Virus record (IMG/VR): IMGVR_UViG_2880372215_000012
Reading direction: 5' to 3' (one strand)
Length of the DNA: 38,479 nt
Source of the DNA: a virus
Taxonomy: Duplodnaviria; Heunggongvirae; Uroviricota; Caudoviricetes
How positions within the stretch are numbered: position 1 is the stretch's first letter; each line of letters opens with the position of its first letter. Below, in pieces: positions 26,559 to 30,683 of the stretch. The notes under the pieces were generated by a model that saw only the letters and a list, made by a program, of their open reading frames with translations, did not search any database and was not told the DNA's origin. The position numbers and the translations under genes are program-made.

Positions 26559-27423
26559 ACCCCGTCTCCCGTTATCCGGAAGCTGACAACAATAAAAAGC
26601 CACCAGTTAATTCCTGATGGCCCTGATGCATAAACGTCATAATACCTGACTGTTATGATTGACAATAATGATAATGTTTATATAGAAAGGTTCCCGATGT
26701 GTGTTACATATCATTTCTCCACGGGGAATATCCCCACGCCAGCGCAGACTCTTTTACCCGTTCTCTTCTGCGCTGGCTCTTTTTTATTATGCTGCTGCAT
26801 TTACCTCTGGCACCATGCTTTCTATCTCAACACAATACGTGGTACTTCTTGTAACCAATATCATAACGATTAATCGACATAGAATTTCTCCCGTGTACAG
26901 GAACAGAGTTAAAAAGCCGGAACCGGAATCAAATCACAGGATGACCATCTGCCAGTGGCAGGTCATAAAAAAAAGGCCGCGCCATGCGCAGCCAGAACTC
27001 ACAAGGAAAATGATAGAAGGAAATAACATTAGTGATGTACGCATGGCGCCTCCCGCTAAGTTCTGCAATGATCAAACAGAACTCGCTACGTGCCCTTAAA
27101 ACTCGATCATTTAGCCCCTCCAAGGAGGATTCACCATGCGGTTGATTTTTTAATAAACAGTAAACAAAAAAGTCAAGAATTATTCATTCTGTTCTTTCAT
27201 CATCGGCCACAGCAATACCACAATGCCGCAGACCAGAGCGCCATCAGTCAGTACCAACATTATCCTGCTGGTGAAATCCATCATCACCATCACTAAAAGC
27301 AGGATCACAACAGCAAGCAGACACAGTTTATAAAACAATGTTCAGGAAACGCATTCAGCATGCCTAAGGTTCTATTCCTACGAATAGCCAACTTGCAACT
27401 TAAAATATTATTTATGCAGCCAA

Positions 27424-28182
27424 TTAAATTCTGGTCCTTACAATATCAACCTGAAGATTCTTATCTTGTGCTGATTGATAAATGACAAACCTTTTACTAC
27501 CTGCATTGAAAGAAGTAGACAAAACCAGACAATTATCATAACGAGCAAGAACATAATACCAACCATCATTATAATTAATCATTTCATATTCTTTCTTAAA
27601 CTGTGGTTTGTAATATCCTGTCAGAAATGAAAAAAGCCAGAAATATGCCACAAAAGCAATCATCACAATCTCAAAAAAATGTTTTTTTATAAATGGCTTA
27701 TCATAGAAGCATGATACCGATAAAAATCGCCCATAAGATCTTATCGAAATTGTAACCGCCAGCGCAATCGCTGCTGACAGTAGCAAAAGAGGTACCTGAA
27801 TCTTCTGTCTCAATATAGAAAACTCAATAATTGCCGGCACAAACAATAATTCCACAGCAAAATAAAGGCGAAATACATTTAGCTCTTGCATAGAATGTTT
27901 TCTTTTCACTGCGAAAAAGAATACAACACCAATACCCCAACCGATAAGAAATATAGCAATGACGATAACTGCAAAAAATAAACTTCTGGCAACATCATCA
28001 ACACCTGCACCTACAATCCACCATGGGAAGCCGTAGTAAAAAGAAGTACCCCATCCATAGAAATAAGCACTCCCCCATCCAAGGCATCCCATGTAGGCAA
28101 TAAAAAGTGAAGAACTCCTGAGCAGCGCACCATCCTTCATAACCACCCCAATACAAGATGATAACATTGGCTTACAACTCAT
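27424..28182 (-). CDS. Hypothetical polytopic membrane protein (moron between Q and the lysis cassette)
   Basis: 252-aa ORF, strongly hydrophobic and aromatic-rich with several predicted TM segments; AT-rich; no family recognised. The start may be the internal Met at 28140. Confidence 0.5.
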   Translation of the reverse strand: MSCKPMLSSCIGVVMKDGALLRSSSLFIAYMGCLGWGSAYFYGWGTSFYYGFPWWIVGAGVDDVARSLFFAVIVIAIFLIGWGIGVVFFFAVKRKHSMQELNVFRLYFAVELLFVPAIIEFSILRQKIQVPLLLLSAAIALAVTISIRSYGRFLSVSCFYDKPFIKKHFFEIVMIAFVAYFWLFSFLTGYYKPQFKKEYEMINYNDGWYYVLARYDNCLVLSTSFNAGSKRFVIYQSAQDKNLQVDIVRTRI

Positions 28183-28282: not shown

Positions 28283-28312
28283 AAAACCCACTCGGCAGCG
28301 GGTTTATACATT
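28283..28312 (-). terminator. Candidate tR'-like terminator downstream of the Q gene
   Basis: Minus strand: AAACCC-loop-GGGTTT followed by a T-run, about 50-70 bp below the Q stop; a promoter-like AT-rich segment lies between. Confidence 0.35.
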
Positions 28313-28350
28313 TTTTACAACATACCAAATTTGCATGAAGTATATGGCTT

Positions 28351-29040
28351 TTAATCCAGTTTTGCAATATTTTGCTGTAAAAATGCTGCCTTTTGTTTTG
28401 AACGTGTTCTCGTCACAAGCAATAAAGCATCACTATCAAGCTGTAGAAAAATGTGCTTCATTGCAACCCAGCGTTCAGTAAATGTCTCGGACCAGTTTTT
28501 TGTTGTCACTCCCACCAATGATGCCAGTGTCTGGTATTCATAGGCCTCACGCCCTGCAAGTTCGCTCTTCACATCCTGTGCAGCCAGCCAGATTAACGTC
28601 TTCAGGCGATCCAGTGTCTTACCTGCAATTTTTCTGTTACTTAACAAATCTTTAAACTCGCTCCATGCCCATTGCGTTATGGTGACCTGATGCCCCCATC
28701 GAACGCTTTCGCTGTAACACCAAAGCAACCATGCTTTCTGATGTTCATCGAGAGACAAAACCGCGCGGCGCCATGAAGAGGTTGAGAATTCAACCGGGCT
28801 GACCAAAGCAATGGATGAACCTTTTGCGTACGACTGCTTACCGGAAGTCGGCGTATTATCCAGCGTAATCATCTTGCCAGTTACCACATCCAGAATGCGC
28901 GGCTTCTTTCGTTTGTATGTACCAGTATCAAATTGTGCATGCTCCTGCCAGGCTTCGAGCTGGCCTTTCGTTGCTCCGTTCAAGTCAGCAGTAGCTGCCA
29001 TAAGTTGCTCACGAACATACTGTAAATATTGGGTATTCAT
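28351..29040 (-). CDS. Putative late-gene antiterminator Q (non-lambda Q type, about 229 aa)
   Basis: Called mainly by synteny (downstream of the nin genes, upstream of the late promoter region and lysis genes) and size; start placed at MNTQYLQYVREQ (29040). Confidence 0.55.
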   Translation of the reverse strand: MNTQYLQYVREQLMAATADLNGATKGQLEAWQEHAQFDTGTYKRKKPRILDVVTGKMITLDNTPTSGKQSYAKGSSIALVSPVEFSTSSWRRAVLSLDEHQKAWLLWCYSESVRWGHQVTITQWAWSEFKDLLSNRKIAGKTLDRLKTLIWLAAQDVKSELAGREAYEYQTLASLVGVTTKNWSETFTERWVAMKHIFLQLDSDALLLVTRTRSKQKAAFLQQNIAKLD

Positions 29041-29512
29041 GCAGTAAATCCTTTCTATATTTTGGCATAATTCTTCAACATTCGGTAATCGTTCAAAACC
29101 GAATCGGGGAAACGACATAAGCACAGGAGCCCCAGCGACAGCGAAGGAGTTCTGATATATAAGACTCAGACATCATTCATTCCCCGGTTCTCCAATATCT
29201 GTTTCACTCATCATCCATAACTACCTGTAATTGCCCCCCTTTTTTTGTAACAGTTCTTATATTGCTATATAGAATAGCCATTACTAATGCATTTAAATTT
29301 AATAAAATAAAATTATAAAAAACATAAAACACCACGCAAACACACTTAATAAAAACACCGTTACATTAAAAGATAATAAAAACCGCAATAAAAAACGAAT
29401 AAATCAATTGTCTCACGCAATTATAAAACATCATATTGATTACGCACCTTGCATTACAAACTCATGTATGTAAAATACGCGCACCATTCAAAAAAAAGGA
29501 AGACAATAACAT

Positions 29513-30472
29513 ATGAAAAAAAGTGTCATCGCTGGCGTCTTTATTGCTCTGTCATTTACCACGTGTTCAGCTATCGCGAACAGCCTTGCATTATCATTAG
29601 CAAATGATGATGCAGGGAAGTTTCAACCAATACTTAATGATATTTATGGCAATAAACATGAAAACAGAGATGATTACTCACAAGGCTTATTTCTGGGATA
29701 TAGCCACGATATCTCAGACTCGAGCCAATTATCTCTCCATATTGCGCAAGATATTTACTCTCCATCAGGCAGTAATAAAAGACACAACACAGCTGTAACT
29801 GGAGACAGAGCTTTTAGTGCATACACTCACACTGGTATTGAATGGAACTCCCTTGCGAATGACTGGATTCGCTATCGATTAGGTACTGACATAGGTGTTG
29901 TTGGCCCCGACGCAGGCGGTCAGAAAGTACAAAATAAAGCTCATGAGATTATTGGGGCAGAAAAATATCATGCATGGGATGATCAAATAGAGAATCGCTA
30001 CGGTTATACTGTAAAAGGGATGCTATCCATGACACCAAGTATGGATATTTTAGGTGCTAATGTTGGATTATACCCTGAAGTTTCTGCTGTTACTGGAAAC
30101 TTATTTCAATATGTAGCATATGGCGCAACCATTGCCATTGGTAATGATAAAACCTTCAATTCGGATAATGGCTTTGGTCTGCTGGCTCCCCGTGGTTTAA
30201 TGCATATGTCCGATACAAGCGGATTCAAATACAAGATTTTTGCAGGTATGGAAAGACGAGATGTCAATCGCAACTATACTCTCGAAGGAAAAACAATACA
30301 GACGAAACAAACAACAGTATCGCTAAACAAAACTGTTGATGAATATCAAGTTGGCGCAACAATTGGGTATGCACCTGTAGCCTTCACACTAGCATTTAAT
30401 AAAGTAACATCAGAATTCAAGACAGGGGATGACTATTCATTTATAAATGGAGCAATCACCTTCTTTTTTTAA
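29513..30472 (+). CDS. lpxR: Outer-membrane beta-barrel protein, probably LpxR-family lipid A 3'-O-deacylase; opposite-strand moron between ninI and Q
   Basis: 319 aa; signal peptide MKKSVIAGVFIALSFTTCSAIA; C-terminal ..GAITFFF aromatic terminus typical of beta-barrels; length and remembered motifs fit LpxR. RBS AAGGAAG upstream; about 300 bp of roughly 75 percent AT upstream. Confidence 0.55.
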   Translation: MKKSVIAGVFIALSFTTCSAIANSLALSLANDDAGKFQPILNDIYGNKHENRDDYSQGLFLGYSHDISDSSQLSLHIAQDIYSPSGSNKRHNTAVTGDRAFSAYTHTGIEWNSLANDWIRYRLGTDIGVVGPDAGGQKVQNKAHEIIGAEKYHAWDDQIENRYGYTVKGMLSMTPSMDILGANVGLYPEVSAVTGNLFQYVAYGATIAIGNDKTFNSDNGFGLLAPRGLMHMSDTSGFKYKIFAGMERRDVNRNYTLEGKTIQTKQTTVSLNKTVDEYQVGATIGYAPVAFTLAFNKVTSEFKTGDDYSFINGAITFFF

Positions 30473-30683
30473 CTGAATTGAATTCAATCAAAATAACATA
30501 AGTCCAACAAAAACATAAAGTGCGAAATGAATGCCAGCTCCATTTATTTCGCACTATAAAAGATTAAAAGTTGCAATAAAATAATAAAATGACTCAGTTA
30601 CGAAAACCAATAAACTGTGGCCAGTAGTGAGTCGCTCATCATCGGGCTTTTTGGCGAATGAAATTTAGCTACGCTTTCGAGTC

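Follow-up and report, generated by a model that had tools for sequence, protein, structure and literature searches.

What an outer-membrane protein gene does on the opposite strand within the late regulatory region of a lambdoid prophage, and how it came to stand there, is the question raised by a locus in a 38,479-nt stretch of viral DNA (IMG/VR record IMGVR_UViG_2880372215_000012, Caudoviricetes; the whole stretch is referred to below as the window). The original prediction, made from the sequence alone, had read the 319-residue product of the interval 29125–30683 as an LpxR-family lipid A 3'-O-deacylase and its gene as an opposite-strand moron lying between ninI and the late antiterminator gene Q. 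The computational analysis described here indicates that the protein is almost certainly an LpxR-family lipid A 3'-O-deacylase, orthologous to that of enterohaemorrhagic Escherichia coli (EHEC) O157:H7. The gene is the already characterised, prophage-borne lpxR of EHEC O157:H7 and is not new.

Identity of the 319-residue protein

The list of open reading frames (ORFs) contains a single long ORF in the interval, lpxR, which runs on the + strand from 29513 to 30472 (stop codon included) and encodes an intact precursor of 319 residues. A search of this protein against all Pfam models using hmmscan (E ≤ 0.01) returned PF09982 (LpxR) as the only hit, with an E value of 6.8e-40 and a score of 137.4 bits against a cut-off of 26. 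The match is full length; LpxR residues 10–318 of 319 align with profile positions 2–320 of 323. A phmmer search of all chains in the PDB (E ≤ 1), which provided the comparison with Salmonella LpxR that the original prediction had proposed, likewise yielded one match only, 3FID_A, the crystal structure of Salmonella Typhimurium LpxR (E 3.6e-153). LpxR residues 24–319 align with residues 2–296 of the 296-residue 3FID chain, end to end over the 12-stranded barrel. Over the mature chain, 220 of 296 residues are identical (74.3%) and the alignment contains one 1-residue gap. At 74% identity to a crystal structure, the fold of the 319-residue protein is settled without structure prediction.

The catalytic and Ca2+ site of LpxR is given, in PMC6863877, as Asn9, Asp10, Ser/Thr34, Gln118, His122 and Glu128 in mature numbering, with an offset of 22 between mature and precursor numbering. 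All six active-site and Ca2+-site residues are conserved in the window's protein, as N31, D32, S56, Q140, H144 and E150 of the precursor. PMC6863877 gives 319 residues for the Salmonella precursor as well, the active-site residues are the same, and the two proteins are expected to share both fold and chemistry.

Both termini have the character of an exported outer-membrane protein by inspection. Residues 1–22, MKKSVIAGVFIALSFTTCSAIA (29513–29578, + strand), have the typical make-up of a Sec signal peptide, with K-K in the n-region, then a hydrophobic core and lastly A-I-A as the cleavage motif; cleavage is predicted before Asn23. In the 3FID alignment, Ser24 is paired with residue 2 of the mature chain, in keeping with this cleavage position. 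The C-terminus ends in GAITFFF, an aromatic outer-membrane β-signal. The RefSeq name for the identical ORF is 'lipid A deacylase LpxR family protein' (WP_000750155.1), and we find nothing in the sequence that contradicts an LpxR identity.

Architecture of the nin–Q region

The phage genes that flank lpxR are all encoded on the - strand and lpxR alone is on the + strand, so the opposite-strand placement stated in the original prediction stands. On one side lies a ninI-type Ser/Thr protein phosphatase gene of the calcineurin-like family (30684–31349, - strand; Metallophos E 4.5e-17). This gene matches NF008516 with an E value of 5e-82, which is under the equivalog cut-off, and its 3' end is ~ 97% identical to lambda ninI. 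The NinG gene (31346–31969, - strand) overlaps NinI directly, and ninH is absent from the nin region of this window. On the other side lie a small ylcG-like ORF (29055–29173, - strand) and a functional-type late antiterminator Q of the Q82/DLP12 type (28351–29040, - strand). The annotated Q has 229 residues and is bounded at 29040; the 257-residue 'Q' spanning 28351–29124 is the mechanical maximal ORF. Q matches PF06323 (E 1e-91) and is called 'Q82-like' in the phage 434 record, whereas lambda Q belongs to PF03589 and a BLASTP comparison of the two proteins detected no similarity. Judged by these comparisons, the Q gene at 28351–29040 is unrelated to lambda Q and belongs to the same recombinant module as lpxR.

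The joints of the module can be placed precisely. Alignment with lambda DNA (J02459) shows that 71 nt at the right joint (30617–30687) are homologous to lambda Q codons 1–23 and that the sequences diverge abruptly beyond. The overlap of lambda ninI and Q is ATGA, and the same ATGA junction is kept in the window. The remnant is a truncated lambda-type Q stub (30598–30687, - strand), a 29-residue ORF that RefSeq names 'antitermination protein, incomplete' and the phage 434 record names 'antiterminator-like protein, N-terminal fragment'. At the left joint, homology to rusA-ylcG-Q modules that lack lpxR, which occur in many E. coli, stops at ~ 29184–29190, just upstream of the ylcG-like ORF. The lpxR-specific DNA therefore spans 29191–30616, ~ 1.43 kb. 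Because lambda homology stops within Q and an unrelated Q lies downstream, lpxR has not simply been inserted between ninI and a complete lambda Q. It belongs instead to a recombinant module, with Q stub, lpxR, ylcG and Q82-type Q as its components, that replaces lambda Q from codon 24 on.

The placement in the original prediction is thereby upheld, with corrections to its anatomy. The gene does lie between ninI and a Q gene, but ninH is missing here, lambda Q is truncated, and the module is not a clean insertion. Similarly, the interval 29125–30683 holds lpxR, but its left end falls inside the ylcG-like ORF and its right end (30617–30687) is the lambda Q stub rather than intergenic DNA.

At the same position lambda has no lpxR and its ninI overlaps Q directly, so that the gene is absent from a related phage and is flanked by conserved phage genes. 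Its composition also deviates from that of the surrounding phage, with a G + C content of 39% in the lpxR ORF and 27–32% in the upstream region versus 49.8% in the window. We regard lpxR on these grounds as a prophage moron of the nin–Q region. Like lambda lom and bor, it is a non-essential outer-membrane protein gene of deviant base composition that sits between phage modules and is expressed from the prophage to the benefit of the host. It differs from them in encoding an enzyme, neither an adhesin nor a serum-resistance protein, in its opposite-strand position within the nin–Q region, and in its link to a replacement of Q.

A 15-bp hairpin (30520–30554), 47 nt past the lpxR stop codon, is the sole strong structure downstream of the gene, with fold z scores of -3.4 (+ strand) and -2.0 (- strand). 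It has no U-tract on the + strand; on the - strand, 30504–30554 includes a T-rich tail, TTTATGTTTTTGTT. Owing to this - strand location of the U-tract, the hairpin looks like an intrinsic terminator of the nin-to-Q transcript and not one of lpxR. The phage 434 record leaves the hairpin unannotated.

The ylcG-like ORF is frameshifted in the window by a 1-nt deletion in a C-run at 29126–29137, which is C4 here versus C5 in O157 strain 9000 and in phage 434; the translated product is 26 residues long in the window versus 39 residues when intact. The deletion was found in none of the best-matching RefSeq complete genomes, and the frameshift reflects either a mutation private to this window or a sequencing error in the homopolymer.

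Two further ORFs of the region have no family assignment. A multi-pass membrane protein of 247–252 residues (27424–28182, - strand) is encoded immediately downstream of Q and accompanies the lpxR-Q module in O157, NIID080884 and phage 434. An opposite-strand ORF of 132 residues (26701–27099, + strand), without a Pfam family, is located between the holin gene and a DUF3927 gene, which itself separates the two ORFs.

The upstream region and expression signals

The DNA upstream of lpxR has an extreme base composition. In a sliding 300-bp scan, the segment 29229–29528 is the most AT-rich of the window, with 27% G + C against a mean of 49.8%, and the very AT-rich stretch of ~ 300 bp noted in the original prediction is thus the window's minimum. 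The G + C fraction is 0.265–0.27 across 29200–29499, and only 0.2% of the 300-bp frames of the window match this segment in AT-richness. Next in AT-richness come stretches within the effector genes at the window's left end and beside them. The cassette-specific part of the upstream region (29191–29512, + strand) contains 12 A/T tracts of at least 4 nt and is presumably a target of H-NS and of Pch/Ler; H-NS may silence it when Pch and Ler are lacking. In the one Pch/H-NS chromatin immunoprecipitation paper searched, no mention of the lpxR locus, or of H-NS, Ler or Pch binding there, was found.

The exact promoter and H-NS sites, like the role of the 3' hairpin, are assignments that we infer. 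By inspection only, a candidate sigma-70 promoter, TTGCAT-N16-TAAAAT, is located at 29449–29476 on the + strand, ~ 37 nt upstream of the lpxR ATG. Its TTGCAT falls under the 4-of-6 threshold that the consensus scan applies to a -35 hexamer, and the scan's own + strand promoter-like match is at 29247–29275. The candidate -35-like hexamer reads TTGCAT in EHEC and TTGTAT in phage 434, a C to T change listed at window position 29461. A Shine-Dalgarno-like AAGGAAG (29496–29502, + strand) precedes the ATG by 10 nt, and the phage 434 record marks a ribosome-binding site there too.

Salmonella lpxR is a target of the MicF small RNA (PMC4651636), whereas EHEC lpxR is under Pch/Ler control (PMC6393859). 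Pairing of the MicF 5' end with positions -80 to +150 of the lpxR mRNA gave a best duplex of -14.6 kcal/mol; 17% of shuffled targets paired as well, and the pairing is not significant. Rfam and tRNA scans of the whole window found nothing within the lpxR interval, the only match being the ALIL pseudoknot of an insertion sequence (IS) element described below.

The host prophage

The element that carries lpxR is a lambdoid prophage that adjoins ybhC and has the usual late genes; we take it to be the prophage next to ybhC known as Sp3/CP-933K. Three genes for type III secretion effectors are located at its left end, encoding NleH (1–891; OspG-kinase domain), NleC (1710–2729; Peptidase_M85) and NleB (2763–3743; SseK/NleB family). 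The original prediction was therefore right to place lpxR on the same element as such effectors.

The early region is degenerate. At 32126–33009, NinE (- strand) abuts an N-terminally truncated bet (+ strand), from which it follows that the immunity and replication segment (cIII-N-cI-cro-cII-O-P-ren-ninB...) has been deleted. Consequently, the prophage cannot drive Q from pR, and it is clearly defective. An IS3-family element of the IS1203/IS629 type is present at ~ 33700–35200, just after exo, with ORFs at 33969–34859 and 34856–35182 (- strand) and an ALIL frameshift pseudoknot (Rfam RF01497) at 34785–34901. The IS1203-type insertion is absent at this site in strain 9000 and present in several other O157:H7 genomes; in carrying it within the early region, the window differs from some O157:H7 strains.

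Distribution and relatives

Over its 1559 bp, the interval shares 99.9% identity with chromosomes of E. coli O157:H7. The whole cassette occurs in 617–619 of 5426 complete E. coli genomes, in every case with at least 99% identity, and the hits sampled include O157:H7 and O103:H2. The EHEC O157:H7 lpxR (WP_000750155.1; MC001 in PMC6863877) is the same gene with the same flanks, in the same prophage at the same ybhC site. Over the stretches 29040–29530 and 30460–30700, the window differs from O157 strain 9000 solely in the 1-nt ylcG deletion, outside lpxR.

The same gene is found in phage 434 as CPT_434_65 (OL657226/OL657227; 6391–7350 in OL657226), where it is annotated as 'outer membrane beta-barrel lipid A deacylase'. 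Phage 434 and the window encode the same LpxR protein (100% identity), and their DNA agrees to 99.2% across the whole interval. The gene order is also the same, namely ninG, ninI, Q stub, opposite-strand lpxR, ylcG, Q82-like Q, the 247-residue membrane protein and DUF3927/TciB. Over the two stretches compared with strain 9000, phage 434 has the longer C-run, carries an additional A within an A-tract upstream of the gene and lacks 8 nt downstream of it. These three small indels are joined by two substitutions, of which one falls in the -35-like hexamer. Phage 434 is complete and viable, with immunity and replication genes that the window's prophage has lost. No mention of phage 434 together with LpxR was found in the literature searched, and no other phage record of the collection searched contains an LpxR homologue.

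The module is not confined to this prophage backbone. E. coli NIID080884 (8452–10976) carries the module, with an identical LpxR, in a different lambdoid prophage in which the stub is preceded by ninH, RusA and a KilAC antirepressor, replacing NinG and NinI. The presence of the stub in this different backbone indicates that the Q stub travels with the cassette.

A second LpxR allele, ~ 80% identical, is found on conjugative or mobilizable E. coli plasmids of ~ 100–195 kb (e.g., NZ_CP157094.1, 51044–52000); in many pig isolates the allele matches over residues 1–269 only and carries no annotation.

A scan of genome contigs for the donor of the cassette gave a single relative, in Citrobacter sp. 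ANG330, and identified no donor locus. The Citrobacter orthologue (5995–6960; 73% amino acid identity) is chromosomal, between purB and phoP-phoQ and beside a histidine-phosphatase gene, so that a gene for lipid A remodelling physically adjoins the PhoPQ system. Its DNA homology to the window is confined to the part that encodes the mature protein; the flanks and the signal-peptide region are not shared. The lpxR gene of Salmonella also has a chromosomal locus and is no prophage moron.

Proposed function and alternative explanations

The protein is almost certainly a 12-stranded, Ca2+-dependent outer-membrane β-barrel enzyme. LpxR cleaves the 3' ester linkage of lipid A by hydrolysis, which removes the 3'-acyloxyacyl moiety with its two acyl chains, and the under-acylated lipid A is a poorer agonist of TLR4/MD-2. 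The gene would be transcribed against the phage genes from its own AT-rich promoter region, and Pch and Ler, per the literature, activate it together with the type III secretion genes of the enterocyte effacement locus (LEE).

The literature on this gene agrees with such a role. A review describes LpxR as an outer-membrane 3'-O-deacylase that depends on Ca2+ and yields a less bioactive product (PMC4651636); citing Reynolds et al. 2006, it also lists lpxR as absent from K-12 and present in O157:H7. Ogawa et al. 2018 (Cell Microbiol 20:e12806), according to citing papers, worked on EHEC lpxR. To that study they attribute that EHEC lpxR is transcribed with LEE genes and needs both Pch and Ler, that EHEC LpxR 3'-O-deacylates lipid A, and that the gene lowers phagocytosis and TLR4 signalling through NF-kB and p38 (PMC6393859, PMC6863877, PMC7649339). 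Pch/Ler dependence, enzymatic activity in EHEC and immune attenuation are thus taken second-hand from this literature. Independent component analysis of EHEC transcriptomes places lpxR in the LEE/Ler modulon (PMC9263587), and in a published survey of bovine and human E. coli genomes lpxR and LEE are strongly associated. Of 224 EHEC genomes, 97.3% carry the gene, whose product is a protective antigen in mice (PMC6863877). The tie between lipopolysaccharide modification and the virulence regulon that the original prediction had raised is accordingly already published, by Ogawa 2018 as reported in PMC6393859, PMC6863877, PMC7649339 and PMC9263587.

A few caveats attach to this assignment of function and its regulation. 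The LpxR protein passes no NCBIfam model, a result that is uninformative as to family. A consensus promoter scan of 28300–30800 found six promoter-like sites against 7.1 ± 2.6 in shuffled sequences, that is, no excess, and the same scan found no canonical + strand terminator for lpxR. In 2006 Reynolds and colleagues reportedly found that Salmonella LpxR, under many conditions, stays latent in the membrane, and with such latency the presence of the gene is no guarantee of activity.

The alternative that fares best is that the LpxR fold has been repurposed, to serve as an adhesin or surface antigen or to modify phage receptors, so that lipid A deacylation is not the main role. Phage morons of outer-membrane families such as Lom and Bor are often non-enzymatic, and a Lom gene is present on the same prophage. 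LpxR is also surface-exposed and immunogenic, and immunisation with it reduces colonisation, according to PMC6863877. However, the six catalytic and Ca2+-ligand residues are all conserved in a protein that is 74% identical to the enzyme, and the same text credits the gene with lipid A deacylation in EHEC and with no effect on adhesion mediated by the type III secretion system. We therefore regard a change of role as very improbable.

Slightly less probable still is that lpxR is a silent relic in a cryptic prophage, its ORF intact by chance and neither expressed nor functional. The decay of the element lends this some plausibility, in that the defective prophage lacks its immunity and replication region, NinE abutting the truncated bet, and has an IS3-family insertion at 33.7–35.2 kb; the integrase is frameshifted in a sister strain and ylcG is frameshifted here. 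Yet lpxR itself is intact, is at least 99% identical in ~ 619 genomes (O157:H7, O103:H2 and others) and is found in two prophage contexts, and the identical protein is encoded by viable phage 434. Moreover, published papers describe regulated expression in transcriptomes (PMC9263587, PMC7649339) and a mutant phenotype and vaccine protection (PMC6863877, PMC6393859), and LpxR protein or 3'-O-deacylated lipid A is reported in the wild type and not in the mutant. Membership in another outer-membrane family (omptin, porin, Ail/Lom, PagL or PagP), some of which the original prediction had named as identities that would contradict it, has only a generic β-barrel character in its favour and is rejected outright, since Pfam (E ≤ 0.01) returns only PF09982, the PDB (E ≤ 1) returns only 3FID, and the true Ail/Lom gene of the prophage sits apart at 5567–6166.

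Beyond lipid A deacylation by LpxR, the lpxR module, which a lambda-Q stub accompanies in every case, might also regulate the phage by setting the hairpin, with its - strand U-tract, and a convergent Ler/Pch-activated promoter between the nin genes and the functional Q. Where the carrier is intact, as phage 434 is, the two could impose an N-dependent terminator checkpoint and transcriptional interference. We consider this second role improbable, together with its corollary that the classical phage 434 is lipid A-converting. If true, virulence-regulon activity would be coupled to the delayed-early-to-late switching of the prophage.

Significance

The biology of lpxR is all published and the present finding adds no new biology to it. 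What is added here are the exact joints of the module, the identity with the phage 434 gene, and the occurrence of the module in at least two lambdoid prophage backbones, which together document the spread of lpxR among LEE-positive lineages. By 3'-O-deacylation LpxR weakens the endotoxic signal of lipid A. The protein has been proposed as a conserved vaccine antigen, according to PMC6863877. Through co-regulation of LpxR with LEE, EHEC can blunt TLR4-driven inflammation and phagocytosis while it attaches.

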